Assembly (NCBI GenBank): GCA_944390405.1
Contig: CALXPS010000001.1
Coordinates: 18,300 to 82,299 of the forward strand
Source: an uncultured Clostridia bacterium
GTDB lineage: Bacteria > Bacillota > Clostridia > TANB77 > CAG-508
Direction of reading: 5' to 3'
Length of the DNA stretch: 64,000 nucleotides
Positions 33,767-48,695 of this stretch are shown here, in pieces; positions within the stretch are counted from its first letter, which is position 1; each line of letters starts with the position of its first letter. The notes below the pieces were generated by a model, which saw only the letters and a program-made list of their open reading frames with translations, did not search any database and was not told the origin of the DNA. A program made the translations under genes and the position numbers.

Positions 33767-36664
33767 GTGAGATTATTGGGAAATAAAACAAAAATTCATG
33801 AAATAGCAAAAAAAATAGGAGTATCAAGTAAAGAAGTTCTAGAAAGAGCACATTCTTTGGGTATAGAAGCATCATCACATTTAAGTGGAGTTGAAGATGA
33901 TGAAGCAAAAAAAATAGAAGAAAGTTTTGGAAAAGTAGATAATACAGATGTGAAAAAAACTGAGGAAAAGCCAAAAAAACAAAAAGAAGTAAAAGCAAAA
34001 AAAGAGCCAAAAGAACAACCTGTAATAATTAGAAGACAGGTAATCTTAGAAGATAGCGAAGAAAAAAATAAAAAAGCAAAAAAACAAGAAAGTGCTAGAA
34101 ATAGAGGTATTGGTGTTGTAGAGCGTGATAGAAACAAAGATTACAATATAGTATATAGAAACAAACAAACAAAACCTCTTACTGTGAGTGAACTTTTTGG
34201 CAAAAAAGAAGAATCAAAACAAGAAGAACCAAAAGAATCTGACAATATGAAACCAGTGGAAACAGAAGTGGTAGAAACAACCCAAGAAAAATCCAAACCA
34301 GAAGAAAAAAATTATAATAAAGAAAATCAGAATAAAAATTATAATAATAGAAATTATAATAATAATTATAACAATAATAATTACAACAATCAAAGAAGAC
34401 CATTTAATTATAATAATCAAGATAATAGAAACTACAATAACAGAAATAATAATGGCTTCCATCAAAATAATTTCAACAATAGAAATAATAATTTCAATAA
34501 AGATAGACAAGGCAATAACAATAGACCATTTAATAATAGAAACAATGGAAACTACAACAGACTAAACAGATCTCTTGATGAAAGGGGTATTGAAAAAAAT
34601 ATTAAAAATATAATGGCATCTGATGTTGTTGAAAAAGAAAGTGTAAGAGAATATTCAAACAGAGCAATAGACAAACAAAAAAATAATAGCAGATATGATG
34701 ACAACAGAATGACTAAAAAGAATAAAAACAGAAGAAACAATTACGATGAAATAAGTAGTCATAAACTTAAAGATTTAAAACAAGAAAAGGGACTTTCAAA
34801 TATGTTTACAGAAGGTTCAATGTTAGATTATTATGACCTAACTACTGCTAGAGGAAAAAAGAGCAAAAAGAAAAACAACAATCAAGAAGAAAGAAACAAA
34901 CAAAAAATATTCCAATTAACAGAAATAACAATACCAGAAACAATTACAGTAAAAGACTTAAGTACAGAATTAAAGAAAACAAGCAGTGAAATTATAAAAA
35001 AACTATTAGGTTATGGAATAATGGCAACAATTAATAATGAGGTTGATTTTGATACAGCTTTCTTAATAGCACAAGAATTTGGAATAACTGCACATAAAAA
35101 AGAAGTTGTAACAGATGAAGACATCCTATTTGATGATAGTGAGGATAATCCAGAGGATTTAAAACCAAGACCACCAGTAATAGTAGTTATGGGACACGTA
35201 GATCATGGTAAAACATCATTATTAGATGCTGTAAGATCAACAAACGTAATTGAAGGTGAAGCTGGAGGAATTACACAACATATAGGTGCATACAAAGTAA
35301 AAATAAATGATAGAGAAATAACATTCCTAGACACCCCAGGACATGAAGCATTTACATCAATGCGTGCTAGAGGTGCACAAATAACAGATATAGCAATACT
35401 AGTAGTTGCAGCTAATGATGGAGTAATGCCACAAACAATAGAAGCAATAAATCATGCCAAAGCAGCAGGAATACCAATTATAGTAGCAATTAATAAAATA
35501 GATGTTGACGGTGCAAATATTGATAGAGTAAAACAAGAATTGATGGAATATGAATTAGTACCAGAAGAATGGGGAGGAGACACAATATTTGTTCCAATTT
35601 CAGCAAAGAAAAAACAAAACATAGAAACATTATTAGAAATGGTATTATTAGTTGCAGACATGCAAGAATTAAAAGCAAATCCTAAAAAACAAGCAAAAGG
35701 TGTTGTAATAGAAGCAAAATTAGATAAAACAAAAGGAGCAGTTGCAACAATGCTTGTACAACGTGGAACATTAGATGTTGGAGATACAATCTTAGTTGGT
35801 TCTACAATTGGTAGAATAAGAACTATGACAGATGAAAAAGGTAAGAAATTAAAAAAAGCCGGACCATCTACACCAGTTGAAATAACAGGATTTACAGAAG
35901 TACCAGAAGCAGGTGAAACATTCTATGAAGTAAAAGATGAAAAAACAGCAAAACACTTAATGGAAAAAAGAAAACGTCAAGCAAGAGATAAAGCATTAAA
36001 TGCTACTAAGAGAGTAACATTAGATGATTTATTTAATCAGATAGAAAAAGGAAATCTAAAACAGTTAAACATAATTGTAAAAGCAGACGTGCAAGGTTCT
36101 GTAGAAGCTGTAAAACAATCATTAGAAAAATTATCTAATGATGAGGTAAAAGTAAAAGTAATACATGCAAATGTTGGTGCTGTTACAGAAACAGATGTTA
36201 CACTTGCAAAAGTTTCAAATGCTATAATAATTGCATTTAATGTAAGACCAGAACCATTGGCAAAAGATATGGCAGAAAAAGACCAAGTAGAAATAAAACT
36301 ATATTCTGTAATTTATAATGCAATAGAAGATGTTGAAGCAGCTATGAAAGGAATGTTAGACCCAGTATATAAAGAAGCGATAATAGGAAATGCAGAAGTA
36401 AGACAAACATTTAAAATATCAAATGTTGGAACAATTGCAGGATGTTATGTAACAAATGGTAAAGTAGCAAGAAATGCTGGAGTAAGAGTATTAAGAAATA
36501 ATGTCGTAATACATGAAGGTAAATTAATTTCATTAAAAAGAATGAAAGATGATGTAAAAGAAGTAGCAGCAGGATACGAATGTGGTGTGCAACTTGAAAA
36601 CTTTAATGATATACAAGAAGGAGATGTTATTGAGGCTTTTGTTATGGAACAGATTAATAAGTAA
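33767..36664 (+). CDS. infB: Translation initiation factor IF-2 with a ~100-aa Asn/Tyr-rich low-complexity insertion; likely start TTG 33776
   Basis: G domain [26 protein letters not shown]; AGGAGGTG RBS 6 nt before TTG 33776. Confidence 0.95.
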
Positions 36665-36686
36665 AGTAATTACATTACTTTACTTA

Positions 36687-36734
36687 TTAATGAATAATGA
36701 ATAGTGAATAGTGAATAGTGAATAATTAATAATT
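36687..36734 (+). repeat. Stop-codon-dense AT repeat, copy A (TTAATGAATAATGAATAGTGAATAGTGAATAGTGAATAATTAATAATT)
   Basis: Heptamer TGAATAG periods give TAA/TGA/TAG in all three frames; immediately after the infB stop and hairpin. Confidence 0.8.
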
Positions 36735-36742
36735 TTGGTGAG

Positions 36743-37123
36743 GTGTGGAGAATGCAGAAGAGTACGGGTTCTAATCGTATGGGTAGAGTAAATGAGGAAT
36801 TAAAGAGAGAGTTGAGTAATATAATTAATTATGAGGTCAAGAACTCTAATGTGACGGGGATGATTAGTGTTACAAAGGTGAAAACATCGCCTGACTTAAA
36901 GTATGCTAGAGTAAGTGTGAGTATTTTGAATTCAAGAAATATAAAGCAAACTTTAGCAGGGTTAAAAGCCGCTTCTGGCTTTATAAGAAGCAGAATAGCT
37001 GAGACGATGAATTTAAGAGTAACACCAGAACTTGTTTTTGAATTAGATGAAAGTCTAGTATATGGAGAAAAAATAGATAAGATTTTAGAAGAAGTAATGA
37101 AAGATATAAAAACAGATGACTAA
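36743..37123 (+). CDS. rbfA: Ribosome-binding factor A
   Basis: RbfA family; conserved position after infB. Confidence 0.85.
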   Translation: MWRMQKSTGSNRMGRVNEELKRELSNIINYEVKNSNVTGMISVTKVKTSPDLKYARVSVSILNSRNIKQTLAGLKAASGFIRSRIAETMNLRVTPELVFELDESLVYGEKIDKILEEVMKDIKTDD

Positions 37124-37166
37124 ATAATTATCAAAAGCCAAATGATGGCAGAAATGAGAGGTAAAA

Positions 37167-38120
37167 ATGACTTTAGATAATATAAAGGAAGAAATACTAA
37201 ATAGTAAGAATATAGTTATATTAACGCATGAAGTGCCAGATGGAGATGCAATTGGCAGTAGTTTAGCAATGTATATTGGATTAAAACAATTAGAAAAAGA
37301 CGTAGATGTTGTTATACCAAAGTTTTCTAAAACATATAAATTCTTACCAGCAGTAGATGAAATAAAAGAGCAGGGAAGAATGGAAACTTATGATTTAGCA
37401 ATAGCATTAGATTGTGGAGATATAAAAAGACTTAATGGATTTTCAAGATACTTTGAATACGCAAATTGCAAAATATCAATAGACCATCATGAAGCTAATA
37501 CAATGTTTGCCGATTATAATTTCGTAAATCCTACAGCACCAGCATGTGCACAAATATTAATAACTGTTTTAAAAGCACTAGGCATAGAAATTACAAAAGA
37601 TATTGGAACATGTTTACTTACAGGAATTATCACAGACACAGGAGGATTTAGATATCAAAATGTAAAACCAGAAACATTTGAATTTGCTGCTGAACTTTTA
37701 ACAAGAGGTGTAAATGTATCAGAAATTTATAAAAAAGCATTGCAAACAATTCCAATAGAAAAATTTGAATTAAGAAAAATAGCAATGAATAGAGTAGAAA
37801 TATTAGAAGAAGGTAAAATAGCATTTACATATATAACAAAAAAAGATGAAGAAAAAACTAAATCAGAAGACCATGATGGAATTGTTGAAATAGGAAGAGA
37901 TATTGAAGGAGTAGAAGTTTCTATATTCTTAAGAGAAACAGGTGAAAATGAATACAAAATTTCATTACGATCTAATGAAAATGTAAATGTGTCAGATATA
38001 TGCCTTATGTTTAATGGAGGAGGACATATGAGAGCAGCTGGAGGAACAATAAATTTACCTTTCGAAAAGGCAAAAGAAAAAATTATAGCAGAATGTAAAA
38101 AACACTTATCTGAAAACTAA
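37167..38120 (+). CDS. nrnA: DHH-family phosphoesterase NrnA (oligoribonuclease / pAp phosphatase)
   Basis: DHH motifs HEVPDGDAIGS and IDHHEAN; DHHA1 GGGH. Confidence 0.8.
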   Translation: MTLDNIKEEILNSKNIVILTHEVPDGDAIGSSLAMYIGLKQLEKDVDVVIPKFSKTYKFLPAVDEIKEQGRMETYDLAIALDCGDIKRLNGFSRYFEYANCKISIDHHEANTMFADYNFVNPTAPACAQILITVLKALGIEITKDIGTCLLTGIITDTGGFRYQNVKPETFEFAAELLTRGVNVSEIYKKALQTIPIEKFELRKIAMNRVEILEEGKIAFTYITKKDEEKTKSEDHDGIVEIGRDIEGVEVSIFLRETGENEYKISLRSNENVNVSDICLMFNGGGHMRAAGGTINLPFEKAKEKIIAECKKHLSEN

Positions 38121-38158
38121 TTTAGCTTTATTCATATAAGTAAGAGGAAGTTATAAAA

Positions 38159-39004
38159 ATGGATGGAGTTTTAATAATAAACAAACCAAAGGGGTATACC
38201 TCACATGATATAGTAAATATAGTAAAAAAAGAGCTAAATATAACCAAGGTAGGTCATGCAGGAACTCTTGACCCAAATGCTACAGGAGTTTTACCAGTGT
38301 TGATAGGAAATGCAACTAAGATATCTAAATATTTGATTGAACATGATAAAGTATATATTGCAGAATTAAAACTAGGAGAAAAAAGTTCAACAGGGGATTT
38401 AGAAGGTGAAATTATAGAAAAAAAGAGTGTACCCAAACTAAATGAAGATCAAATAAAAGATACTCTAAAATTATTTCTAGGAAAACAACAACAAATACCT
38501 CCTATGTATTCTTCTATAAAAATAAATGGCAAGAAAGCATATGAGTATGCACGTAAAGGTTTAAAAGTAGAAATGGAACCAAGAGAGATTGAAATAATGA
38601 ATATATCTTTAATGAAATTTCAAGATAATATTATAACTTTTAAAGTAAAATGTTCGAAAGGGACATATATACGTGTATTATGTGAAGACATTGCTAAAAG
38701 TCTTGGAACAGTTGGATTAATGAAAGAATTATGTAGAATAAAAGTAAATGAGTTTGATATAAAAAATTCTGTTACTTTAGATGATATAAAAAATGGAAAT
38801 GTACAAGTTATAAATATAGAAGAAATATTTAAATTGCAATCTTGTATAAAACTAAATAATAGAGAAACTAAACTTTTTCTAAATGGAGTGAAACTTTCTA
38901 ATAATAAATTAGATGGATTATATCGAGTATATAATAATAACGTTTTCTTAGGATTAGGAATAGTAAGCAATAACTTACTAAAAAGAGATGTTATAATAAT
39001 ATAG
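38159..39004 (+). CDS. truB: tRNA pseudouridine(55) synthase TruB
   Basis: GVLIINKPKGYTSHD; catalytic GHAGTLDP. Confidence 0.9.
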   Translation: MDGVLIINKPKGYTSHDIVNIVKKELNITKVGHAGTLDPNATGVLPVLIGNATKISKYLIEHDKVYIAELKLGEKSSTGDLEGEIIEKKSVPKLNEDQIKDTLKLFLGKQQQIPPMYSSIKINGKKAYEYARKGLKVEMEPREIEIMNISLMKFQDNIITFKVKCSKGTYIRVLCEDIAKSLGTVGLMKELCRIKVNEFDIKNSVTLDDIKNGNVQVINIEEIFKLQSCIKLNNRETKLFLNGVKLSNNKLDGLYRVYNNNVFLGLGIVSNNLLKRDVIII

Positions 39005-39080
39005 AATGTTATAATTGAAAAAAGTATTGCAAAAAAATTGATTATATAATAAAATTAAAATATAAATTATTTAATTAATT

Positions 39081-39566
39081 TTGAAGGGAGGGAAACAAAA
39101 GATGTTTGGGTATTTTATTACAGCACTTGCAGGAATATTTTGGATATTTAGATTAATTGTTGCATTAATGTTTACTACAGATGCAAGCTTTCCAATAGTA
39201 CCAATAAATATGACATTTGAGATAATCGTATTATTTGTAACTTTTGTATGTATAATTTTTATAGCAAAAGAAAAAATGATAGGAGCCGTAATATATTTAA
39301 TTGCACAATGTGCATATTTTGGAGTAGATGCATATAAAGCACTAGAGGTTATAACATCTGGTCAAGCTGTGCAAACATCAAATTATATAACACTATTTAT
39401 ATCATTTATAGCTATAATAATACCAGTACTTGCAATTATGAACATTGGATTAAGTAGTGGTAAAAAAGGTAGTATGAAAAATAGAAAAACCGATTGGTTT
39501 TATGGGACAACAGACTATGACAGAAATCTTGATGATAGAGCAGATAAAAATCAATATAAATTTTAG
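39081..39566 (+). CDS. Hypothetical membrane protein (four TM segments)
   Basis: Hydrophobicity only. Confidence 0.4.
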   Translation: MKGGKQKMFGYFITALAGIFWIFRLIVALMFTTDASFPIVPINMTFEIIVLFVTFVCIIFIAKEKMIGAVIYLIAQCAYFGVDAYKALEVITSGQAVQTSNYITLFISFIAIIIPVLAIMNIGLSSGKKGSMKNRKTDWFYGTTDYDRNLDDRADKNQYKF

Positions 39567-39650
39567 TTATAACGTGTATGGGCGAGCAGTGTTCGTCCAT
39601 TTTTCAAAAAACTGATAACAAAATAACTATTTAAGGAGGCAGTAATAAAG

Positions 39651-40547
39651 ATGAATGATAATTGGCAAAATTCGACCAATATTAATTGGTATCCAGGGCA
39701 TATGCTAAAAACAAAGAAACAGATAATGGAGGACTTAAAGTTAATAGATGTAATTATTGAAATACTAGATGCACGTATACCACTTGCTAGTCAAAATCCT
39801 GATATAAAGCAAATAACAGCGAATAAAAAGAAAATAATTGTATTAAATAAAAGTGATTTAGCAAATGAAGCTGAAACAAAAAAATGGATAGAATTTTTTA
39901 AAAATCAAGGAATTATAGCAATTGCAACAGATTCAAACCTTGGAAAAGGTGTTAAAGAAACACTAAAATTAGTACAAGAAGTTATGCAAGAAAAATTAGA
40001 AAAAGCTAGTATGAAGGGAATAAAAAACAAAAACATTAGAATAATGATTTGTGGAATTCCAAATGTTGGTAAATCATCATTTATAAATAGAATGATAAAT
40101 AAGAAATCAGCAGAAGTGGGAAATAGACCAGGTGTTACAAAACAAAAACAATGGGTTAGAATATCAACAAATATAGAACTATTAGATACACCAGGTGTTT
40201 TATGGCCAAAATTCGAAAATCAAGATATATCTTTAAAATTAGCTTATACAGGAACAATTAAAGATGAGTTATTAGATAAAACAGAAATTGCATATAATTT
40301 GTTAAAATATTTAGAAAAAAACAATAAAAAAGAACTTTTTGAAAGATATAAATTGACAGACCAAGAAATTAATAGTATAATATCTGAAGATGATGATATA
40401 ATTAAGCTTATGTATTCAATTGCAAAAAAACGTGGTGCAATTATTTCAGGTGGAGAAATAGATTATGAGAGGACATCAGCTATAATATTAAACGATTTTA
40501 GAACTGGAAAAATAGGAAGAATAACATTGGAGAAGGTAGATGGATAA
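39651..40547 (+). CDS. rbgA: Ribosome biogenesis GTPase A (YlqF/RbgA)
   Basis: Circularly permuted GTPase: NKSDL precedes GIPNVGKSS; WYPGHM N-terminus. Confidence 0.85.
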   Translation: MNDNWQNSTNINWYPGHMLKTKKQIMEDLKLIDVIIEILDARIPLASQNPDIKQITANKKKIIVLNKSDLANEAETKKWIEFFKNQGIIAIATDSNLGKGVKETLKLVQEVMQEKLEKASMKGIKNKNIRIMICGIPNVGKSSFINRMINKKSAEVGNRPGVTKQKQWVRISTNIELLDTPGVLWPKFENQDISLKLAYTGTIKDELLDKTEIAYNLLKYLEKNNKKELFERYKLTDQEINSIISEDDDIIKLMYSIAKKRGAIISGGEIDYERTSAIILNDFRTGKIGRITLEKVDG

Positions 40548-40926
40548 TAGAGGAAAAGTAAATACAATGTCACCATTAACATGGGCATATATAGGAGATG
40601 CTGTATATGAATTATATATACGAAATCATCTAGTAGAAACAACAAATTTAAAGCCAAATAAATTGCATAAAGAATCTATAAATTTTGTGAAGGCAAAATC
40701 ACAAGCACAAATACTAAATGAATTAAATGAATATTTAACAGAAGAAGAAAAAGAAATAGTCCGTAGAAGTAGGAACACACAAAATCATCATCTACCTAAA
40801 AATGCAGATCCAACGGATTACATGTATTCAACAGCATTTGAAGGATTAATAGGATATTTATATTTATCAAAACAACAAGAAAGGTTAAATGAAATACTAA
40901 AAAAAGTACTAGAAATAAGAAAATGA
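40540..40926 (+). CDS. mrnC: Mini-ribonuclease 3 (MrnC)
   Basis: RNase III-like WAYIGDAVYELYIR motif in a ~130-aa protein. Confidence 0.75.
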   Translation: MDNRGKVNTMSPLTWAYIGDAVYELYIRNHLVETTNLKPNKLHKESINFVKAKSQAQILNELNEYLTEEEKEIVRRSRNTQNHHLPKNADPTDYMYSTAFEGLIGYLYLSKQQERLNEILKKVLEIRK

Positions 40927-40983
40927 TACTAAATAATAGCATGATGTTAGTACTGCTATGGTTTAACATCTGCATATAAACAT

Positions 40984-41058
40984 GGCCCGTTGGTCAAGCG
41001 GCTAAGACGCCACCCTCTCAAGGTGGAATCATGGGTTCGATTCCCGTACGGGTCACCA
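40984..41058 (+). tRNA. tRNA-Glu (anticodon CTC)
   Basis: GGCCCGTTGGTCAAGCGG... cloverleaf; anticodon loop CTCTCAA; 3' CCA encoded. Confidence 0.85.
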
Positions 41059-41070
41059 GAGGTTATTTTT

Positions 41071-41104
41071 TTAATGAATAGTGAATAATTAATAATTAAT
41101 AATT
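41071..41104 (+). repeat. Stop-codon-dense AT repeat, copy B
   Basis: TTAATGAATAGTGAATAATTAATAATTAATAATT directly after tRNA-Glu. Confidence 0.75.
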
Positions 41105-41158
41105 GAGGTGGCAAAAATGTTTTACATTTTTGCTGTTTAATTTATTAGGAGTAAAATT

Positions 41159-43495
41159 ATGAGTAATGTAGAGTTGTTGTCTCCAGTTGGAGAATGGGAT
41201 TCATTGGTTGCAGCGGTGCAGAATGGGGCAAATGCGGTATATTTTGGGGCAAATGAATTTAATGCAAGAATGAATAGCAAGAACTTCAATAGAGAAGAAT
41301 TGAAAAGAGCAATAGAATATGCCAAATTAAGAAATGTAAAAACTAATTTGACATTAAATATTTTAATAAAGGATAAAGAGTTTGTGCAAGCAATAGAATT
41401 GGTTAAGTATGCATATGAATGTGGAATTGATGCTATAATTGTACAGGATTTAGGATTAGCAAGAGAGATTATAAAATTGTTTCCAGATTTAGATGTACAT
41501 AGTAGTACACAAATGACAGTATATAATATAGATGGTGTAAAAGAGATAGAAAAACTCGGCTTCAAAAGGTGTGTACTAGCTAGGGAACTTTCATTAGATG
41601 AGATTAGAAATATATGTAGTAATACAAATATAGAAATAGAAGTTTTTATACATGGAGCACTTTGCATATGCTATTCAGGCCAATGTTTAATGAGCAGTAG
41701 TATTGGAGGAAGAAGCGGAAATAGAGGAAAATGTGCAGGTACATGTAGATTACCATATACATTATTAAAGAACGAACATATGGTTGAAAAAGGACATTTA
41801 TTAAGTTCAAAAGATGTGTGCACACTAGATATATTGCCAGAACTAATATCAGCAGGAATAAAATCATTTAAAATAGAAGGGAGAATGAAATCGCCAGAAT
41901 ATGTTGGATTAGTTACATCAATATATAGAAAATATATAGATTTAGCAAATAGTAATAAAGAATATATAGTAGATGAAAAAGATAGAGAAAAGTTAATGCA
42001 GATATTTAATAGAGGAGGTTTTAGTACAGGTTATCTAAAAGGAAAATTAGGTAAAGAAATGATGTATAAGGATAAACCAAATCACATGGGGATATATATA
42101 GGAAAAGTTTTAAACTATAATTATAATAAAGGATATGTTAAGTTTAAAACAGAAAAAGAAATATTATTAGGAGATAGTATTTCTATAAATGATGCATCAT
42201 GTAGGATATCAGAATTAATGATAAGTAATAACAATATAAAGGTTGCAAATTTAGGAGAAATTGTAACATGTGGTAGAATAAATGGAAAAATACATGTTGG
42301 AGATAAAATATATAGAACAGTCTCAACAGCTCTAAACAAAGAAATAGAACAAATATCTCAAAAGGAAAATATCAAAAGAGAAATAGATTGTACAATTAGA
42401 ATAAAAGAAAAAGAACCTATTGAACTTTGTATAAAAGATAGGAAAATAGGAATATTAGTGAAAAAGATTGGTGCAATTCCAGAAAAAGCAGAGAAACAAG
42501 GACTTACTGTAGAAAGGATAAAAGAACAATTGTCAAAACTTGGCAATACAGTATTTAAAATAGCAAGTATTGATATAGAATTAGGTGATAAAGTAATAAC
42601 ATCAATAAGTAATATAAATGAAATACGTAGGGAAGCGGTGCAAGAGTTAGAAAAAGCAATAACACAAACATTTATGCGTAAAGAAATAAAAATAAATATG
42701 CCTTCACACGCATTAACTAAGAAGTTACCTAAAATAGTACAAGTAAGTTTGTGCTTAAATAATATGAGCGAAACTTTAAATTATGAAAAGCTAAATGGAG
42801 CGGATAATATATACATCCCACTAAGATTTTTCATTAATCCGAAATTTAAAAGTCAAATTCAAGTTCTAATGGATAAGTTTAATGTATTTTTACTTATGCC
42901 AACAATTAGCAAAGGAAACTATGAAAAAATAGATTTACAAAAAGTTTTAAAGAATAATATAAAAGGTGTTGTTATATCTAATTTATCACAAATAGAATAT
43001 TTTAATGGAATGGCAAAGATAGGAAATTACACATTAAATATTAGTAACAATTATACAATTAATGAACTTCAATCTCTAGGCATAACAAAATATATAACAT
43101 CACCAGAATTTGATAAATATACTATACAAAATTTAAACAACGATATAGACAAAGAGGTTATAGTATATGGTAGAACCCTTATTATGACAACAGAATATTG
43201 TGCAATAGGAACATATAAAAATTGTTCTGGAATTTGTGAGAATGGCAGATACAAGTTAAAAGACAGAATGGGTTTTGAATTTCCTATAATAACCGATAGA
43301 ATAAATTGTAATAACCTTATATATAATTCAAAAATAACATCTATTGAATGGAACGATTTAAATGTAAACTCAATAAGAATAGATATTTTAGATGAAAATA
43401 TAGAAGAGATAAATGAAATTATCAAAATACATAAAACTGGAAAACGAATGGAAGGCAAAGATTATACAAATGGAAATATAAATAGAGAAATTTAA
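41159..43495 (+). CDS. Peptidase U32 family protein (collagenase-like, long form)
   Basis: U32 signature region EIEVFIHGALCICYSGQCLMSS; conserved Cys cluster. Confidence 0.8.
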   Translation: MSNVELLSPVGEWDSLVAAVQNGANAVYFGANEFNARMNSKNFNREELKRAIEYAKLRNVKTNLTLNILIKDKEFVQAIELVKYAYECGIDAIIVQDLGLAREIIKLFPDLDVHSSTQMTVYNIDGVKEIEKLGFKRCVLARELSLDEIRNICSNTNIEIEVFIHGALCICYSGQCLMSSSIGGRSGNRGKCAGTCRLPYTLLKNEHMVEKGHLLSSKDVCTLDILPELISAGIKSFKIEGRMKSPEYVGLVTSIYRKYIDLANSNKEYIVDEKDREKLMQIFNRGGFSTGYLKGKLGKEMMYKDKPNHMGIYIGKVLNYNYNKGYVKFKTEKEILLGDSISINDASCRISELMISNNNIKVANLGEIVTCGRINGKIHVGDKIYRTVSTALNKEIEQISQKENIKREIDCTIRIKEKEPIELCIKDRKIGILVKKIGAIPEKAEKQGLTVERIKEQLSKLGNTVFKIASIDIELGDKVITSISNINEIRREAVQELEKAITQTFMRKEIKINMPSHALTKKLPKIVQVSLCLNNMSETLNYEKLNGADNIYIPLRFFINPKFKSQIQVLMDKFNVFLLMPTISKGNYEKIDLQKVLKNNIKGVVISNLSQIEYFNGMAKIGNYTLNISNNYTINELQSLGITKYITSPEFDKYTIQNLNNDIDKEVIVYGRTLIMTTEYCAIGTYKNCSGICENGRYKLKDRMGFEFPIITDRINCNNLIYNSKITSIEWNDLNVNSIRIDILDENIEEINEIIKIHKTGKRMEGKDYTNGNINREI

Positions 43496-43621
43496 AACAA
43501 ATTACTGATATAGTTGTAAAATTACTTCAAAAATAAAAATTCAAAAAAACAATTGTCCTAGATATTAAATTATGATATAATATGTAACATAAAAGCAGAA
43601 AAAAGAGGAAGGAAAAGAATT

Positions 43622-46225
43622 ATGGCAGAATTTTCACCTATGATGCAGCAATATTTAAGCATAAAAGAGCAATACAAGGATGCAATACTTTTCTTTAGAC
43701 TAGGTGATTTCTATGAAATGTTCTTTGAAGATGCAATACTGGCTTCAAGGGAATTAGAAATAACACTTACTGGTAAAGAATGTGGACAAGAAGAAAGAGC
43801 ACCAATGTGTGGTGTACCATTTCATGCGGTAGATAACTATGTTTCTAAATTAATTGAGAAAGGATATAAGGTAGCTATATGTGAACAGCTAGAGGACCCT
43901 AAAGTAACGAAGGGTATGGTAAAACGAGATGTTATAAGAATAGTAACACCAGGAACTGTAATTGAAAGTAATATGCTAGATGAAAAGAAAAATAATTACA
44001 TAATGTCTGTTTACAAGAAAGGAATTTATTTTGGAATAGCTATATGCGACGTATCTACTGGAGATTTCTACTCAACAAAAATAGTAGAAAATAATAATTT
44101 CGCAACACTATTAGACGAACTTGCAAAATTTGGCCCAGCAGAAATTGTTGTAAATAGCTTTTTATATAGCTCAACAGAAGAGATAAATGAAATAAAGAAA
44201 AGGTTTAATGTATATATAAATAATTTTGATGATGAAAATTTCAAAGATGATAAAGAAACATTGTTAAAAAATTATAACATTGAATATGAAAATAAAAAAA
44301 TAGAAAATCTAGATGATTATCAATTAGAAACTGTTGCTATAAATGGTTTGCTTGCATATTTAAGACAAACGCAAAAAATGAAACTAGAACATATAAACCA
44401 TATAAAGTTTTATAACCTACAAAAATATATGGCATTAGATATAACAGCAAGACGAAACCTAGAATTATTAGAAAGACAACATGATAAAGGCAAAAAAGGA
44501 ACTTTACTTTGGGTGTTAGACAAAACTTCAACATCTATGGGTGGAAGAATGCTTAGAAAATGGATAGGCGAGCCATTATTAGATGTTGGTGAAATAAATA
44601 GTAGGTTAGAAGCGGTAAAAGAATTAAAAGATAACAGTATTTTAAGAGGAGAATTACAACAAGTTTTAAAAAAAGTATATGATATAGAAAGATTAGTAGG
44701 TAAAATATCATATGGTAATAGTAATGCTAGAGAAATGAATGCATTAAAAAATTCATTAATGCAACTACCTTCAATAAAAGAATTACTAAAAGAAGCTAAT
44801 TCAGAATTACTTAAAAAATTAGAAATAAATTTAGATACATGTGAAGATTTGGCCAAACTAATAGATAGTGCAATTATAGATGATCCACCAATAACCATAA
44901 AAGAAGGTGGACTAATAAAAGAAGGTTATAATTCAGACGTAGACGAATACAAAAAAGCTTCAACAGAAGGTAAACAATGGCTTTTAGAATTGGAACAAAG
45001 GGAAAAAGAAACAACAGGAATAAAAAATCTAAAAATAGGATTTAACAAAGTATTTGGATATTTTATAGAAGTAACAAAATCAAATTTAAGTTTAGTACCA
45101 GATAGATATATAAGAAAGCAAACATTAACAAATGGAGAAAGATATATAACAGAAGAATTAAACGAGCTAGAAAGCAAAATTTTAGGAGCAGAAGAAAAAC
45201 TAATAAATTTAGAGTACAAGTTATTCATAGAATTGAGAAATATTTTAGCACAAAATATAATACGTTTGCAAAATACCGCAAATATAGTTGCTACATTAGA
45301 TGTACTTATATCTTTTAGTACTGTAGCAGAAGACATGAACTATACTTGTCCAATAGTAAATAATGACGGAGAAATTGATATAAAGAATGGTCGCCATCCT
45401 GTAATAGAAAAAATGATAGATTCTGGCTCATTTGTGGCAAATGATACATATTTAAATAAAGATACAGACCGCCTTTCTATAATTACAGGGCCAAATATGG
45501 CAGGAAAATCTACATATATGAGACAAGTTGCATTAATAACATTAATGGCACAAATAGGAAGTTTCGTACCTGCTTCATATGCAAAAATAGGTATAGTAGA
45601 TAAAATATTTACAAGAGTTGGTGCATCAGATGATTTAAGCATGGGGCAAAGTACATTCATGGTAGAAATGATGGAAGTTGCAACAATATTGAAAGAAGCA
45701 ACTGAAAATAGTTTAATAATACTAGACGAGATAGGCAGAGGAACATCAACATATGATGGATTATCAATAGCATGGGCAGTAGTAGAACACATAACAGACA
45801 AAACAAAATGTGGAGCAAAAACTTTATTTGCAACACATTATCATGAATTAACAGAACTAGAAAATAAATTAGAAGGCGTAAAAAATTACTCGATAGCTGT
45901 AAAAGAAAAAGGAGAAGATATAATTTTCTTAAGAAAAATAGTAAAAGGTGGAACAGATGAAAGCTACGGAATACATGTTGCAAAATTAGCAGGAGTGCCA
46001 AAAACAGTTGTAAAAAGATCAAACGAAATACTAAGAAGCCTAGAAAGAAAAAACATGCTAGGACAGAAAAAACAAGAAAACAAAAAACAACCAGAAGGAC
46101 AACTGGACTTTTATAATTATAAACTAGCTGAAATAGCTCATGAAATAGATAAAATAAATTTAAATGAATTAACACCGATAGACGCTCTTAATACGCTGAT
46201 GAAAATAAAAGAAAAGATGCAATAA
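43622..46225 (+). CDS. mutS: DNA mismatch repair protein MutS
   Basis: Mismatch-binding N-terminus; Walker A GPNMAGKST; STFMVEM; DEIGRGTSTYDG. Confidence 0.95.
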   Translation: MAEFSPMMQQYLSIKEQYKDAILFFRLGDFYEMFFEDAILASRELEITLTGKECGQEERAPMCGVPFHAVDNYVSKLIEKGYKVAICEQLEDPKVTKGMVKRDVIRIVTPGTVIESNMLDEKKNNYIMSVYKKGIYFGIAICDVSTGDFYSTKIVENNNFATLLDELAKFGPAEIVVNSFLYSSTEEINEIKKRFNVYINNFDDENFKDDKETLLKNYNIEYENKKIENLDDYQLETVAINGLLAYLRQTQKMKLEHINHIKFYNLQKYMALDITARRNLELLERQHDKGKKGTLLWVLDKTSTSMGGRMLRKWIGEPLLDVGEINSRLEAVKELKDNSILRGELQQVLKKVYDIERLVGKISYGNSNAREMNALKNSLMQLPSIKELLKEANSELLKKLEINLDTCEDLAKLIDSAIIDDPPITIKEGGLIKEGYNSDVDEYKKASTEGKQWLLELEQREKETTGIKNLKIGFNKVFGYFIEVTKSNLSLVPDRYIRKQTLTNGERYITEELNELESKILGAEEKLINLEYKLFIELRNILAQNIIRLQNTANIVATLDVLISFSTVAEDMNYTCPIVNNDGEIDIKNGRHPVIEKMIDSGSFVANDTYLNKDTDRLSIITGPNMAGKSTYMRQVALITLMAQIGSFVPASYAKIGIVDKIFTRVGASDDLSMGQSTFMVEMMEVATILKEATENSLIILDEIGRGTSTYDGLSIAWAVVEHITDKTKCGAKTLFATHYHELTELENKLEGVKNYSIAVKEKGEDIIFLRKIVKGGTDESYGIHVAKLAGVPKTVVKRSNEILRSLERKNMLGQKKQENKKQPEGQLDFYNYKLAEIAHEIDKINLNELTPIDALNTLMKIKEKMQ

Positions 46226-46245
46226 ATTGGCATCTTTTCTTTGTG
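46208..46245 (+). terminator. Rho-independent terminator overlapping the mutS stop
   Basis: GAAAAGATGC-aataaattg-GCATCTTTTC then TTTGTGTTTT. Confidence 0.75.
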
Positions 46246-46257
46246 TTTTCATCAGCG

Positions 46258-46298
46258 TTAATGAATAATGAATAGTGAATAGTGAATGATGAATAATT
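46258..46298 (+). repeat. Stop-codon-dense AT repeat, copy C (left inverted partner of D)
   Basis: TTAATGAATAATGAATAGTGAATAGTGAATGATGAATAAT. Confidence 0.8.
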
Positions 46299-46319
46299 TT
46301 TTTTACTTCTTTTACTTTT

Positions 46320-46712
46320 TTAATTTTTTGTTTTTTTGGATTTTATTGTGTTTAGTGTTGATATTAGCATTTTTTTTATGGATAGACATTTATTGATTAA
46401 ATTGTTGTATAGATTTAAGGAAATATAATTGGATTTTAATAATAATTTTATCCAATATTCTGTTTCTGCACATTCTTTTAATGCGATGTGCATTTTAGAA
46501 ATAAAATCAGAAGAACTAATAGCATAATTAGCTTCATTAATATTAGCACCTATACTAGTTGCACTACGAATAATCTGTTTAGAAATAATAAACTCTTTTT
46601 TATTTTTAACTAAAAAAATCTGCAATCTAATAACATCAGCTGCAAACTCTAAAGACTGCTCCAACAACGGATTCTCCCTCACAACACCCCCCCTTCCTTC
46701 GAAGAAGCCCAC
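46320..46712 (-). CDS. Four-helix-bundle protein of the 23S-rRNA-IVS / DGR Avd family; true start probably GTG ~46682 after GAAGGGGGGG
   Basis: LLEQSLEFAADVIRL...RSATSIGANINEA core typical of TIGR02436 / PF05635. Confidence 0.65.
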   Translation of the reverse strand: MGFFEGRGGVVRENPLLEQSLEFAADVIRLQIFLVKNKKEFIISKQIIRSATSIGANINEANYAISSSDFISKMHIALKECAETEYWIKLLLKSNYISLNLYNNLINKCLSIKKMLISTLNTIKSKKTKN

Positions 46713-46720
46713 CCAAAAAA

Positions 46721-46760
46721 ATTATTCACCATTCATTATTCACTATTCATTATTAATTAG
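46721..46760 (-). repeat. Stop-codon-dense AT repeat, copy D (inverted orientation)
   Basis: Reverse complement CTAATTAATAATGAATAGTGAATAATGAATGGTGAATAAT matches copies A-C. Confidence 0.8.
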
Positions 46761-46787
46761 AAAAAACGCCTGTTAAGGCGTTTTTTC
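46761..46787. terminator. Bidirectional terminator hairpin (AAAAAACGCC-TGTTA-AGGCGTTTTTTC) ending the minus-strand tRNA operon
   Basis: Perfect stem with A-run on one side and T-run on the other. Confidence 0.7.
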
Positions 46788-46788
46788 T

Positions 46789-46864
46789 TGGCTGGGGTGG
46801 GAGGACTCGAACCGCCGAAATGCCAGAGTCAAAGTCTGGTGCCTTACCACTTGGCTACACCCCA
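46789..46864 (-). tRNA. tRNA-Gln (anticodon TTG)
   Basis: Reverse complement TGGGGTGTAGCCAAGTGG... cloverleaf; anticodon loop CTTTGAC; CCA encoded. Confidence 0.8.
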
Positions 46865-46891
46865 ATATATAAATATTTAATTTGTAACTCG

Positions 46892-46969
46892 TGGGGTGGA
46901 AGATGGGACTCGAACCCACGGCCTCTGGTGCCACAAACCAGCGCTCTAACCAACTGAGCTACATCCACC
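46892..46969 (-). tRNA. tRNA-His (anticodon GTG) with extra 5' G(-1)
   Basis: Reverse complement GGTGGATGTAGCTCAGTTGG...; anticodon loop TTGTGGC; discriminator C; CCA encoded. Confidence 0.8.
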
Positions 46970-47131
46970 AGAAATTTCATGCTATTAATATAAGCACATG
47001 TACTATTTTAAATAATTTTTTCGAGTTTGTCAACACTTTTTAGAAAAAAAGTAAAAATAGTTGACTTTTTTTCTTTGTAATGATATGATTTTATCAAATG
47101 ATACATAAAACAAAGGAGGACATATCGAAAA

Positions 47132-48695
47132 ATGAGAAAAAATAGTGGAATAACTTTAATAATGTTAATAATATATATAATTTTAACTTTATTAGTTCTA
47201 GGTATGCTAAGTGTATTAGGAATGAATTTTAGAAAAAATTTAAATAGTACAAATGAGCAAACCATTCGTGATATTGAATTTGATAAATTAAATTTACAAT
47301 TATTAAAAGAAACAAAAACAGAAGGAAATGTAATAAATGAAAGTGAATCAAATTCAACTAAAATAGTTTTTTCTAACGGAAATGTATATACTTATAATGA
47401 AGCGGAACAAACAGTTTATTTAAATGAAAATATAAAAATAGCAGAACATATTGAAGCTTGTACATTTAAAATAAAGTCAGTAGAAACAGATGCTTTTAAT
47501 GAAACTAGAAACTATACAGATAAAAACGGAGATGTAGCTGTAATTCCAGCAGGATTTATGGTTTCTGGATTAGAAGATGAACAAACAATAGATACAGGGT
47601 TAGTAATATATGAAGCTGTGCCAACAAAAAAACAAAGATTAAATGTAATAGTTAAAGTAAACGACATGCAAAGGGTAACAGAATATGTTTTAATAAGTGA
47701 AGCTAGTGCTATAAACTGGAATGATGGAGCAGAAGTAGCAACAGCACAAACAACATATGACCAATTTGTATGGATACCAATATCACATGAACAAATAAAT
47801 AATATGTATATTTGCCAAGCAAAAACAGGTTCAAATGGAAATTGTAACATAACAGTAGAAAACGGACAAGCAAAATGCACAACCCACAATTCAAACCTAA
47901 TGGCAGGAAGACTATATGCTACATCTACTGGAGAAAAATTTGAACAAGGCTATACCGAAGTTTATGACACAACAGGAGAAGGACTAAGAGAGCCAGATGT
48001 AGTATCAATTTATGACAACGATAGCACGTATTTAAGCCAACTATCAAGTATACTAGGCTCAGGATACGATACAATGGAAAACTTCAAACAAAGTCTACAA
48101 CAAGAATATAACGAAGTAGTAAAAAGCGTATATGAAAACCAAGGATTTTATATAGGTAGATATGAAACAAGTGGAATGGTAAATAGTAACACAAATGCAA
48201 CAGTAAAATCAGTAGCAGGAACAAACATAGGAATAGGCAGTGTAACATGGTATAGAAGGTATGCCCAACAAAAGAAATATGCAGAAAACAACCAATTAAC
48301 TAGTGTAAAAAGTACAATGATACAAGGGGCGGCATACGACCAAGTAATGAAATTTGTAGAAAATGGAGAAAGACCAGATGGACAACCTTACAATATAACA
48401 ACAGCAGGAAATGTAGGACATGGTTCAAGTCAAGGTATAACAGGAACATATCAAACAGGAGGATTGAATTATCCAAGTTCAGCAACAGTACCATACAATG
48501 ACAAAGTAAAAAACATATACGACCTAGAAGGAAACGTATTTACGTGGACTACAGAGGCCCACTCTAGCAACTACAGGGTTGTCAGAGGTCGGTGGTTACG
48601 TCGGCAGCAATTCAGCTAGTTGTCGCAGCTACTGCAATCCGATCGGCAGCGACACCATTTACGGTTCTAGCCTCCAGCTTTACGTAGTTCTGTAA
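47132..48695 (+). CDS. Pilin-like protein with C-terminal FGE-sulfatase / C-type-lectin-fold domain, a DGR-target-like variable-region (VR) protein. It is frameshifted near 48590: the annotated frame stops at 48619 and the domain continues in the +1 frame to 48695
   Basis: N-terminus KNSGITLIMLIIY prepilin-like; EGNVFTWT...YRVVRGRW matches the GNVWEW...RVLRGGSW family motif; +1 frame 48582-48695 reads GGYVGSNSASCRSYCNPIGSDTIYGSSLQLYVVL with 16 of 36 NNC codons. Confidence 0.55.

Follow-up and report, generated by a model that had tools for sequence, protein, structure and literature searches.

The closest described counterparts of the locus analyzed here are the ORF-bearing intervening sequences (IVS) of 23S rRNA genes, which are inserted in helix 25 or 45 and occur, for example, in Coxiella burnetii (helix 45) and Leptospira. 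The Coxiella IVS has a 28-bp terminal-repeat stem that is cut by RNase III, and carries 2-3 tandem heptamers (GACAGAT) before the start of the S23p ORF, with the number of heptamers varying between strains (PMC4990558). The S23p family (PF05635) has had no assigned function since it was found in these elements, and its members are annotated only as 'four helix bundle protein'; our first search returned more than 2,600 homologues. The same Pfam family includes Avd, the accessory protein of diversity-generating retroelements, a small, basic, pentameric four-helix bundle.

A second, separately described phenomenon is the abundance of heptameric tandem repeats, which are reported to be over-represented in bacterial intergenic DNA and for which polymerase slippage has been proposed as the cause (Rehm et al. 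2015, PMC4692102). In Xanthomonas, 186 GGGAATC arrays are reported, of which 70 sit in 'convergent' (purine-first) inverted pairs; these arrays are typically 4-6 units long, vary in length between relatives and, being G-rich, were interpreted as G-quadruplex formers. That paper makes no link to S23p (the terms 'S23', 'four-helix' and 'xcc0516' do not occur in it). The TAACTGA direct repeats (MacGregor 2015, PMC4679880) and the cyanobacterial STRR heptamers are likewise dispersed in intergenic regions with a patchy cross-phylum distribution, have stop codons on the forward strand and none on the reverse strand, often lie just upstream of start codons and in ribosomal-protein operons, and have no known function. 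Almost all of these are solo direct repeats (one 'indirect' set among 170), and no associated gene family has been reported. In the searchable literature, we found only a single-organism remark, on Coxiella, that links heptamers with the S23p family.

Here we examined a 64-kb stretch of DNA from an uncultured Clostridia bacterium (hereafter, the window), for which a preliminary description had reported four copies of an AT-rich repeat, two of them in inverted orientation around an Avd-like ORF. This observation is confirmed: the window contains four tandem arrays of the heptamer TGAATAR, three on the plus strand (A, B and C) and one inverted (D), and none elsewhere (Table 1). The repeat period determined with TRF is exactly 7, rather than 7-8 as initially described. 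The possibility that the motif is simply a frequent AT-rich word had been put forward in advance as grounds for rejecting the observation. In a search allowing up to 1 mismatch, the pattern TGAATARTGAATA had 16 matches compared to 1.64 expected; the largest number among 100 shuffled sequences was 7, none reached 16, and 15 of the 16 matches lie in the four blocks. All four arrays lie between genes and within 10 kb of each other; their number over the rest of the genome was not counted.

Table 1. Features of the heptamer arrays and the S23p cassette (window coordinates)
Position	Strand	Feature	Supporting observations
36653..36691	+	Perfect 18-bp hairpin overlapping the last codons and the stop of infB; array A begins at its 3' foot	36653-36670 / 36674-36691, 100% complementary; no U-tract follows
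36687..36734	+	Array A: solo array (TGAATAA/TGAATAG/TTAATAA) in the infB-rbfA intercistronic spacer, 22 nt after the infB stop and 17 nt before the rbfA ATG (36752); contains no C	TRF 36688-36733, 6.6 copies; unit number and composition differ between strains
41071..41104	+	Array B: solo array, 12 nt after tRNA-Glu(CTC) and 54 nt before the U32 peptidase start	TRF 41072-41104, 4.7 copies
41110..41134	+	Terminator-like hairpin (GCAAAAATG-TTTTA-CATTTTTGC, then a T-rich tail) downstream of array B	Read from the sequence; not scored by the terminator scan
46193..46258	+	mutS 3'-end hairpin: the coding 3' end pairs with the sequence just after the stop; host feature, left insertion boundary of the cassette	Equivalent hairpin in relatives without the cassette
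46258..46304	+	Array C plus T-run; on the gene (minus) strand, the pyrimidine-rich 3' arm of the cassette	TRF 46259-46297, 5.6 copies; identical in 10 related contigs
46320..46682	-	PF05635 / TIGR02436 four-helix-bundle gene (S23p / 23S rRNA IVS protein family, Avd-like), 120 aa, GTG start, pI 9.6	SD-like GGAAGGGGGGG at 46697-46687; PF05635 E 2e-26; TIGR02436 E 2e-28; a profile of the family matches PDB 2RLD at E 2e-38
46715..46760	-	Array D plus A-run; on the gene strand, the purine-rich 5' arm of the cassette, 32 nt upstream of the start codon	TRF 46721-46759, 5.6 copies (inverted); pairs with C in the MFE and centroid RNA folds
46761..46786	.	Bidirectional terminator-like hairpin (AAAAAACGCCTGTTAAGGCGTTTTTT) between the cassette and tRNA-Gln; right insertion boundary	Read from the sequence and paired in the fold; not called by the consensus terminator scan; relatives have one shared terminator between mutS and tRNA-Gln
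46789..46968	-	tRNA-Gln(TTG) and tRNA-His(GTG); operon upstream of the cassette on the same strand	Promoter-like site at 47033-47005

Several details of the initial description required correction. The start codon of the enclosed gene is most likely the GTG at 46682, not 46712: the 120-aa product is the one on record, and it aligns with its homologues from M1. Three of the arrays were also described as lying directly after a plus-strand gene and its terminator, which is only partly right. The hairpins before A and C overlap the 3' ends of infB and mutS and have no U-tract, and at B the terminator-like hairpin follows the array rather than preceding it. Arrays A, B and D are described equally well as lying 17-55 nt upstream of a start codon.

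The interpretation offered with that description is partly supported, in that the comparison with a discrete unit and with the IVS architecture holds, whereas the proposed translational stop cassette does not find support. Arrays C and D are the arms of a 45-nt inverted repeat (46259-46303 / 46715-46759), 93% complementary and 411 nt apart, which delimits a unit of ~500 bp with the S23p gene in its loop. Folding of this unit as RNA had been named as a test of a long RNase III-type stem. When the gene strand was folded, the two arms paired in both predicted structures, with a free energy of -133 kcal/mol compared to -92 +/- 5 for shuffled sequences (z = -7.8). Thus, as in ORF-bearing IVSs, terminal inverted repeats pair into a predicted long stem that encloses a PF05635 ORF, tandem heptamers lie upstream of the ORF, and the element is about 430-500 nt long. 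In contrast to the rRNA elements, however, the unit is not located in a 23S rRNA gene: an Rfam search found only tRNAs in the 64 kb, and the flanking genes are mutS and tRNA-Gln. Furthermore, the repeat unit differs (TGAATAR as opposed to GACAGAT in Coxiella, or CAGAGGA in an Azospirillum IVS considered below), the stem is longer (45 compared to 28 bp), solo arrays of the same unit lie nearby and, unlike in Coxiella, no variation in the number of heptamers was seen at C and D in 10 strains. Excision by RNase III has not been demonstrated here; only the duplex substrate is predicted. With respect to diversity-generating retroelements, Pfam-annotated gene lists spanning +/-10 kb around the identical gene in 10 contigs showed no reverse transcriptase, and a repeat search over positions 36000-47500 found no direct repeat longer than 41 nt other than the heptamer arrays, and hence no template/variable repeat pair (~100 bp, near-identical); the gene is instead embedded in heptamer arrays.

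Sites lacking the unit in related genomes had likewise been proposed as a check, and such sites were found. Loci from related species with MutS 83-90% identical (L211 and L214-L217) have the mutS-tRNA-Gln junction with neither the cassette nor the arrays, and one of the related species carries only a degenerate forward+reverse mini-hairpin at the same spot (L212 and L213). The solo arrays behave differently from the arms. Among 10 contigs from related strains, A has 5-6 units and B has 4-6, whereas C and D do not vary. Across lineages, site B has 0 units in L211 and L214, 2 in L217, 4 in the window and in several strains, and 6 in L001, L005 and L008, and at site A a relative with 87% identical MutS (L231) has only a 9-nt spacer (GGAGGCAAA) with no array.

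The association between the gene family and the arrays extends well beyond this locus. Of 66 distinct homologues (50-73% identity, chosen by protein only), 59 have a period-7 array within 200 nt, with a density of 4.9 arrays per kb at 0-100 nt compared to 0.07-0.28 per kb beyond 200 nt. Nine of the 59 are bracketed as in the window, whereas in most (about 50 of 59) the array hairpin lies entirely upstream of the gene, so that enclosing the ORF is not obligatory. Distant PF05635 genes are also bracketed by inverted arrays with lineage-specific units. These include the genes between accB and accC in Xanthomonas, Dyella, Lysobacter and Dokdonella (GGGAATC type), genes in Mesorhizobium (GTGAATA/GTGAATG), ten cyanobacterial plasmid loci, Gemmatirosa, and a genuine 23S rRNA IVS in Azospirillum (A. 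lipoferum plasmid AZO_p2, locus L243) with the same 7-nt periodic arms. The XCC0516-type gene (PDB 2GSC) between accB and accC is bracketed by exactly the GGGAATC arrays described in Xanthomonas, although its protein clade is very distant from that of the window (E 0.25 to the profile A1). In 17 of these 18 loci, including the window, the arm score exceeded every one of 50 shuffles, in some cases only narrowly. The upstream arm is 58-88% purine in the 16 inverted-bracketed loci, and the best period is 7 in 13 loci and 8 in 4.

Taken together, these observations suggest that C and D are the two arms of a free-standing IVS-type hairpin cassette, situated between the mutS terminator and the terminator of a tRNA-His/tRNA-Gln operon and behaving as one insertion/deletion unit, whereas A and B are orphan arrays of the same repeat family, unstable in unit number and lineage-specific. 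All four arrays belong to the known but unexplained class of intergenic heptameric repeats. Under this model, on any transcript that spans the cassette, the purine-rich 5' arm would pair with the pyrimidine-rich 3' arm into a ~45-bp duplex which, by analogy with rRNA IVSs, RNase III is expected to cut. Such cleavage would release the ORF-bearing loop and separate it from the flanking host RNA, which would explain why such cassettes are tolerated inside operons; the arms would be built from, and resized by, 7-nt slippage. Our analysis shows the anatomy, the predicted stem, the presence/absence and unit-number polymorphism, and the cross-phylum association of PF05635 genes with purine-first inverted arrays, mostly of 7-nt period. 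RNase III excision at the stem and heptamers upstream of the S23p ORF have been shown in the literature for rRNA IVSs, whereas co-transcription of both arms and RNase III cleavage at this locus, as well as the origin of the solo arrays, are inferences. We consider this explanation somewhat more likely than not. There are no expression data, the cassette lies downstream of a terminator-like hairpin, and the only promoter-like match (TTAACA-16-AATAAT) would start transcription inside arm D, so that co-transcription of two full arms is unproven. In addition, the arms in Xanthomonas mismatch at every seventh position, suggesting that perfect pairing is not what is conserved, and no target-site duplication or other insertion signature could be defined because the intergenic flanks are not alignable between species. 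The model assigns no role to the protein, the function of which is still unknown, and does not explain why the period is 7.

These findings bring together two old puzzles, the S23p family and the excess of heptameric repeats, which co-occur systematically. Genes of this family in Clostridia-type metagenome contigs, alpha- and gamma-Proteobacteria, Cyanobacteria, Gemmatimonadota and a true rRNA IVS are embedded in inverted arrays that share a polarity and, mostly, a 7-nt period, but not a sequence, and these genes often sit inside operons (accB-accC, cas6-cas4, cas10-cmr3, 23S rRNA). For genome annotation, this means that IVS-type cassettes exist outside rRNA genes and can be recognized by their arms. 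A broader and distinctly tentative possibility is that PF05635 cassettes are one widespread class of operon-dwelling elements whose arms are self-made, purine-first arrays of 7-nt period. The unexplained excess of heptameric repeats in bacterial genomes (STRR, GGGAATC, TAACTGA and the TGAATAR arrays) would then be functionally or genetically tied to this protein family, as its binding sites, its products or its footprints. In that case, A and B would be satellites of the cassette 5-10 kb away, and rRNA IVSs would be only the best-known special case.

Among the alternatives, the one that survives best, although we consider it unlikely, is that the arrays, as RNA or single-stranded DNA, are recognition sites for the PF05635 pentamer itself, with autoregulatory arrays at its own gene and A, B and the hundreds of arrays in other genomes serving as further cis-sites. 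In accord with this possibility, the physical linkage is tight and spans phyla, 58 of the 66 homologues have an array within 200 nt upstream of the gene, and the Coxiella heptamers sit just before the start codon. The protein is basic, both matched PDB entries hold five chains, a homopentameric toroid has been described (Lin et al. 2006, as cited in PMC4990558), and arrays typically have about 5 units (median 4.9, mode 5). The homologue bAvd binds nucleic acid and the reverse transcriptase of diversity-generating retroelements; such binding was not tested here. However, the unit is not conserved between lineages (TGAATAR, GGGAATC, GGGTGTA, AGGTGAC, AAGGGAA, GACAGAT and others) and drifts even between proteins more than 85% identical, so that sequence-specific recognition would require rapid co-evolution. 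Moreover, most TGAATAR arrays sampled across phyla have no PF05635 gene nearby; no binding data exist.

It also appears unlikely that the arrays are neutral slippage products, that is, ordinary AT-rich microsatellites that flank the gene by coincidence. The unit-number polymorphism, the proposed role of slippage in generating bacterial heptamers (PMC4692102) and the absent or minimal arrays in relatives are compatible with this view. However, the same TGAATAR unit occurs in at least 120 loci from genomes of 26-64% GC, so it is not a by-product of composition, and arrays are 30- to 50-fold enriched next to PF05635 genes. Furthermore, a rare unit variant (TGAATG-) sits at the same position in both C and D, the arms in other loci (L168, L171) extend into unique sequence, and paired arrays are 24:2 in the purine-first configuration. 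This explanation is already disfavored for C and D.

Similarly doubtful is a MITE-like or transposon-like element whose terminal inverted repeats would be recognized by a transposase or recombinase supplied in trans, with A and B as solo ends left by excision. The inverted repeats themselves, the presence/absence between related species, the possible footprint in L212 and L213, the report of four-helix-bundle genes among strain-unique genes in Arthrospira (PMC8700078) and the proposed transposition origin of IVSs (PMC4990558) are consistent with mobility. However, there is no transposase within +/-10 kb and only one full copy of the element in the 64 kb, the rest of the genome not having been searched. 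No direct repeat is visible at the boundaries and, because the diverged flanks of relatives do not define the empty site to the base, this leaves the matter of a target-site duplication undecided. In addition, the arm sequences are simple repeats that differ between lineages, and the accB-accC copy is at the same site in four genera of Xanthomonadales, so it appears to be vertically stable.

Still less likely, the arrays could be phase-variable repeats in 5' leaders or promoters whose unit number tunes expression of rbfA, the U32 peptidase gene or the PF05635 gene. The forward orientation of A, B and D upstream of start codons, the variation of A and B between strains and the location of TAACTGA repeats just upstream of start codons in Beggiatoaceae (PMC4679880) could suggest such a role. 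However, rbfA is a housekeeping gene inside the nusA-infB operon and an unlikely target of phase variation, the arrays are short, C has no downstream gene on its strand, and arrays in other genomes show no orientation preference relative to flanking genes.

Finally, the suggestion that the arrays are all-frame translational stop cassettes placed after genes, although A and C lie 22 and 33 nt after stop codons and the forward units carry TGA plus TAG or TAA, is already contradicted: any heptamer with one stop triplet presents it in all three frames because 7 is coprime to 3, B follows a tRNA rather than a coding gene, relatives lack the arrays altogether, 4 of 13 unit types in equivalent positions (GGGAATC in Xanthomonadales, AAGGGAA in Geminocystis, AGTCAGG in Aulosira and CAGAGGA in Azospirillum) contain no forward-strand stop, and of 55 TGAATAR arrays between co-directional ORFs in other genomes, 30 are forward and 25 are reverse, the reverse strand having no stops.

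We confirmed the four blocks of the preliminary description, all of which lie where that description placed them (see table), so the observation itself holds. Tandem Repeats Finder reports a period of exactly 7 for each block. The preliminary description had stated that its case would fail if the motif were merely a frequent AT-rich low-complexity word with a random genomic distribution and no positional bias to gene 3' ends; within the window, the motif is not such a frequent word. The pattern TGAATARTGAATA with up to one mismatch matches 16 times, against 1.64 expected from shuffles (the largest shuffle value was 7, and none of 100 shuffles reached 16), and 15 of the 16 matches lie in the four blocks, so the rest of the 64 kb has none. 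A count over the whole source genome, which had also been proposed as a check, was not made. Although the window is about 28% G+C, the arrays are not generic AT-rich noise, and they contain no C on the forward strand. Arrays C and D form a 45-nt inverted repeat that is 93% complementary, with the two arms 411 nt apart.

Coordinates of the heptamer arrays, the cassette and additional features in the window and in related loci
Sequence	Coordinates	Strand	Feature	Properties
Window	26020-26136	+	Tandem repeat	Period 12/24 (ACAACAAAAACT), about 9 copies, 62-68% matches
Window	33969-34394	+	Cluster of low-complexity tandem repeats inside infB	Periods 15, 18 and 27
Window	36688-36733		Array A	6.6 copies
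Window	36752		ATG of rbfA	
Window	40540-40926	+	Gene for a protein resembling Mini-RNase III	128 aa
Window	41072-41104		Array B	4.7 copies
Window	46259-46297		Array C	5.6 copies
Window	46259-46303 / 46715-46759		Inverted repeat formed by C and D	
Window	46682	-	Likely GTG start of the PF05635 gene	Product 120 aa
Window	46721-46759	opposite strand	Array D	5.6 copies
Window	46761-46786		Bidirectional terminator-like hairpin	Next to tRNA-Gln
Window	47132-48619	+	ORF without a Pfam hit	495 aa
Window	49166-49722	+	Two small adjacent ORFs	107 and 77 aa
L001	7718-7757		Fifth TGAATAR array	5.7 units
L230	8553-8879 and 9380-9407		Heptamer arrays in the rpsL-rpsG and rpsG-fusA spacers	

The gene calls surrounding the arrays were confirmed as infB, rbfA, U32 peptidase and mutS, together with tRNA-Glu and, on the minus strand, tRNA-Gln and tRNA-His. 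Array A lies in the infB-rbfA spacer, 22 nt after the infB stop and 17 nt before the rbfA ATG. Array B lies 12 nt after tRNA-Glu and is followed by a terminator-like hairpin, with the U32 peptidase start 54 nt downstream of the array. Directly upstream of tRNA-Glu and array B is a gene whose product has only the Ribonuclease_3 catalytic domain (PF00636) and so looks like a Mini-RNase III, although its position near dsRNA-forming arrays may be coincidental. Array C starts at the foot of a long hairpin that involves the last codons of mutS; this hairpin is a host feature, because relatives without any array have an equivalent one. Array D lies between the bidirectional terminator-like hairpin and the four-helix-bundle gene. 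A consensus terminator scan called nothing in 46100-47100, and the hairpins were read by eye and from the folds. No Rfam family covers the arrays or the cassette.

The ORF between C and D, on the minus strand, belongs to PF05635 (E 2e-26) and to TIGR02436, "four helix bundle protein" (E 2e-28), and a profile built from it and its homologues matches PDB 2RLD at E 2e-38. Because this profile match settles the fold, no structure prediction was run. The longest reading of the ORF, 130 aa, was rejected because an exact look-up of it found nothing, whereas the 120-aa product, which starts at the GTG behind GGAAGGGGGGG, is on record on 22 contigs that were read (82 index blocks) and, in the 10 places examined, lies next to mutS. 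The protein is basic, with a pI of 9.6. Folding of the interval from C to D as RNA, which the preliminary description had proposed as a test for a long stem, supports the presence of such a stem: the gene-strand RNA 46790-46240 is predicted to fold with the two arrays paired into one long terminal stem in both the MFE and the centroid structures, at -133 kcal/mol against -92 +/- 5 for shuffles (z = -7.8). There is no reverse transcriptase within +/-10 kb and no template/variable repeat pair, and therefore this is not a diversity-generating retroelement.

Empty sites in related strains, likewise suggested beforehand as a test, were found. We examined contigs from relatives whose MutS is 83-90% identical, all of which have the same mutS-tRNA-Gln-tRNA-His arrangement. 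In the relatives L211, L214/L215 and L216/L217, the spacer holds only terminator hairpins, with no gene and no arrays. Two further relatives, L212 and L213, carry TTAATGAATAATAAATAATTTTTCATTATCCAATATTTAATAA at exactly the cassette position, a short, degenerate forward+reverse heptamer mini-hairpin without an ORF. The whole block, arms plus gene, therefore behaves as an insertion/deletion unit, and the site has changed more than once, because the closest relative has no trace of it while a more distant one has a remnant or a seed.

Among 10 contigs that carry the identical protein, C and D are invariant, whereas A has 5 or 6 units of varying composition and B has 4 or 6. Site B has 0 units in L211 and L214 and 2 in L217, and site A is a 9-nt spacer (GGAGGCAAA) in another relative, L231, against 87 nt in the window. 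Thus, A and B are young, unstable solo arrays. One strain (L001, one of the loci around the identical gene) has a fifth array, which lies next to a strain-specific Fic-domain gene and a terminator and is absent from the window and from the other strains. In some strains (loci L005, L007 and L008), an island with a tyrosine integrase, an HTH protein and small ORFs replaces the usual neighbors on the tRNA side of the cassette, and in L005 two serine recombinases lie beyond the Mini-RNase III and GTPase genes, so that the tRNA cluster appears to be an integration hotspot. In L230, a relative with 90% identical MutS, the rpsL-rpsG spacer is about 350 nt long and is bounded by inverted heptamer arrays of a different unit (TAGAAGT / ACTTCTA) that enclose an ORF-less AT-rich loop of about 280 nt, and the rpsG-fusA spacer holds a TGAATAA-type array just before the fusA ribosome-binding site. 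Hence, ORF-less hairpin inserts and solo arrays also occur in ribosomal-protein operons.

To determine how widely the unit is distributed, we scanned one genome per GTDB species for exact occurrences of TGAATARTGAATARTKAAT and obtained at least 120 stretches, from Bacteroidota, Clostridia, Acidobacteriota, Chloroflexota, Planctomycetota, Cyanobacteriota, Campylobacterota, alpha- and gamma-Proteobacteria and candidate phyla. These loci range from 26 to 64% G+C, so the unit is not a product of local composition. We first supposed that every TGAATAR array in other genomes flanks a PF05635 gene, but this was rejected. An iterated HMM built from close homologues found such genes in 4 of the 120 loci; a Pfam search of 139 neighboring ORFs found 2, although that list excluded ORFs overlapping the arrays and so missed one locus (L022); and a second-clade HMM raised the total to 6 loci, in 3 of which the gene is adjacent to an array. 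Most of these arrays are solo and lie beside ordinary genes. A register-bound regular expression for paired arrays recovered only 10 pairs and was too strict, whereas an alignment-based search found that 26 of the 120 have an inverted partner within 800 nt. Of these 26, 24 are in the configuration with the purine-rich arm first, which reads the same on both DNA strands and is therefore independent of gene orientation. The loops range from 11 to 763 nt, and 13 of them are below 55 nt, that is, they are ORF-less hairpins. Among arrays between co-directional ORFs, as defined by simple long-ORF calls, 30 are forward and 25 reverse, so no orientation bias relative to the flanking genes was detected.

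In the reverse direction, we selected 80 metagenomic loci only by similarity to the protein; these comprise 66 distinct genes at 50-73% identity. Of the 66, 59 have a period-7 array within 200 nt (58 upstream, 12 downstream). The array density is 4.9 per kb at 0-100 nt, 3.1 per kb at 100-200 nt and 0.07-0.28 per kb farther away. The units are mostly TGAATAA or TGAATAG, but TGAACAA, AGATAAT, AATAAAG and others also occur, and proteins more than 85% identical can carry different dominant units, so that there is no evidence of specific recognition. Nine of the 59 genes are bracketed by inverted arms as in the window, and the rest have a complete array hairpin upstream. Upstream of the PF05635 gene, many Clostridia-type loci among these metagenomic homologues (L133-L183) share a conserved motif, approximately GACAGGATTTTCTAAATG, in the loop of the array hairpin, as well as a GAAGTCGCTTCGCTGA insert between two forward arrays, and several loci have direct repeats of "reverse array + spacer" flanking the gene; none of this is explained. 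In viral contigs, only one homologous locus was found, and it was not pursued.

We then turned to a very distant member of the family, XCC0516 (PDB 2GSC, E 0.25 to our profile). [quoted passage not shown] In Dyella, Lysobacter and Dokdonella, the annotated start codon lies inside the upstream array. The second-clade HMM further showed that one of the array loci, from Mesorhizobium hawassense (64% G+C), holds a PF05635 ORF exactly between inverted GTGAATA/GTGAATG arrays (fold z = -4.3).

A tblastn search of plasmids gave 23 records, 20 of them cyanobacterial, so that this sample is dominated by cyanobacteria. Of the 12 loci retrieved, nearly all are bracketed by inverted short-period arrays with lineage-specific units: GGGTGTA in Calothrix, GGGTGTG in Nostoc punctiforme, AGGTGAC in Anabaena sp. 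90, AAGGGAA in Geminocystis, GGAGATA in Picosynechococcus, AGTCAGG in Aulosira and an 8-mer, AGGGCAGG, in Gemmatirosa. One locus, on an Azospirillum lipoferum plasmid, is a genuine 23S rRNA IVS whose arms are CAGAGGA/CGGATGA repeats. In three cyanobacterial plasmids (L235, L238, L241), the PF05635 cassettes sit in sense orientation inside CRISPR-cas operons, between cas6 and cas4 in Anabaena sp. 90 and Pseudanabaena galeata and between cas10 and cmr3 in Picosynechococcus. Over 18 loci including the window, the arm complementarity exceeds every one of 50 shuffles in 17, in some cases only narrowly (Xanthomonas 18 against 15; Stanieria 15 against 12.5). The upstream arm is 58-88% purine in the 16 inverted-bracketed loci, and the best period is 7 in 13 loci and 8 in 4. 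The exceptions are Nostoc 7120, which has no clear pairing, and Pseudanabaena, where direct arrays dominate: on plasmid pPg_01 of P. galeata (L238), about 15 units of AAAGCTA lie upstream of the PF05635 gene and about 9 units of AAAGCCA downstream, in direct rather than inverted orientation, and a further inverted arm lies 158 nt upstream.

Published data bear on both components of the cassette. The Coxiella burnetii IVS is 428 nt long and carries an S23p ORF, with a 28-bp terminal-inverted-repeat stem that RNase III cuts in vitro, the ends being mapped inside the stem, and with two or three tandem heptamers (GACAGAT) just before the ORF, the number of which differs between strains (PMC4990558). 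Heptameric repeats are reported as over-represented in bacterial intergenic DNA, and Xanthomonas has 186 GGGAATC arrays, of which 70 sit in "convergent" pairs, "always" one on each strand (PMC4692102). TAACTGA repeats occur in Beggiatoaceae, Cyanobacteria and Bacteroidetes with no known function (PMC4679880). Neither of the latter two papers mentions S23p or four-helix-bundle proteins, and our literature searches for a link between these proteins and heptamers returned nothing except the Coxiella paper and no paper that generalizes the link.

Taking these lines of evidence together, we interpret C-ORF-D as a free-standing copy of the IVS-type cassette, that is, a PF05635 gene in the loop of a hairpin whose arms are inverted heptamer arrays. 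On a transcript that spans it, the arms would form a ~45-bp duplex. A duplex of two or more helical turns is a substrate of RNase III, and the Coxiella experiments show cutting at such a stem. RNase III is therefore expected to cut here and to detach the ORF-bearing loop from the neighboring RNA, a logic that would explain why such cassettes are tolerated inside rRNA, accBC and cas operons. In this view, the arms are assembled and resized by 7-nt slippage; a rare unit variant (TGAATG-) sits at the same position in both arms, which indicates common descent or conversion between the arms, and A and B are orphan arrays of the same family. Our analysis demonstrates the anatomy, the predicted pairing, the indel and repeat-number behavior, and the cross-phylum association and polarity, whereas co-transcription of both arms at this locus, cleavage at this locus and the origin of the solo arrays are inferred, and all statements on structure are predictions. 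Several features fit this interpretation less well: the cassette lies behind a terminator-like hairpin, the only promoter-like match would start inside arm D, most homologues carry the hairpin upstream of the gene rather than around it, and the Xanthomonas arms mismatch at every seventh base. The interpretation assigns no role to the protein, whose function is unknown, and offers no reason why the period is 7, which is likewise unknown. One possible reason for the 24:2 polarity is that a C-rich, G-poor 5' arm would be an exposed Rho-loading site while the loop is being transcribed, but this is an inference for which no test was performed. The interpretation offered in the preliminary description is thus only partly supported, in that its comparison with the long-stem structure of 23S rRNA intervening sequences holds up, whereas its proposal that the arrays act as all-frame stop cassettes does not.

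Among the alternatives, the one that survives best, although we consider it unlikely, is that the arrays are binding sites for the PF05635 pentamer. This would fit the tight linkage, the position of arrays upstream of the start, the basic protein and the typical array length of about 5 units, but it is weakened by the fast drift of the unit sequence. Neutral slippage, which we regard as less likely still, fits the polymorphism but not the enrichment next to the gene family, the shared rare variant in both arms or the polarity. A MITE-like mobile DNA element appears similarly improbable: the terminal inverted repeats and the empty sites fit, but there is no transposase within +/-10 kb and no second full copy in the 64 kb, and no target duplication is visible at the boundaries, although the intergenic flanks of the relatives are too diverged to define the empty site to the base. 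Phase-variable leader repeats are a remote possibility. The stop-cassette reading is the least likely, being contradicted by the lack of orientation bias, by the 9-nt array-free spacer at site A in L231 and by equivalent array units in other lineages that contain no forward-strand stop.

In our interpretation, the cassette works like an rRNA IVS but, because it fails the defining criterion of location, we do not classify it as one. It fits the class of intergenic heptameric simple-sequence repeats in its tandem 7-nt units between genes and, at A and B, in the varying unit number, whereas dispersal of many copies over the genome was not examined. PF05635 genes outside rRNA are common, and heptamer repeats are known; what we did not find described is that the two form one architecture with conserved period and polarity across phyla, with rRNA IVSs as a special case. 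A more far-reaching possibility, which is compatible with the data but which we consider doubtful, is that this protein family is causally tied to the heptamer repeats of bacterial genomes.

The window holds some additional features that are not part of the arrays. Just beyond the tRNA pair lies the ORF without a Pfam hit, the length of which varies between strains and relatives (487-513 aa); the N-termini in the relatives (MKQDKGITLITLIMYIILT...) look like a pilin-type hydrophobic leader, as judged by eye only. The two small adjacent ORFs correspond to DUF4258 and YokU-like products in related contigs and so may be a toxin-antitoxin-type pair. The dense cluster of low-complexity repeats inside infB is A/K/N-rich coding sequence in the N-terminal part of IF2, and the tandem repeat of period 12/24 lies in an unknown context.
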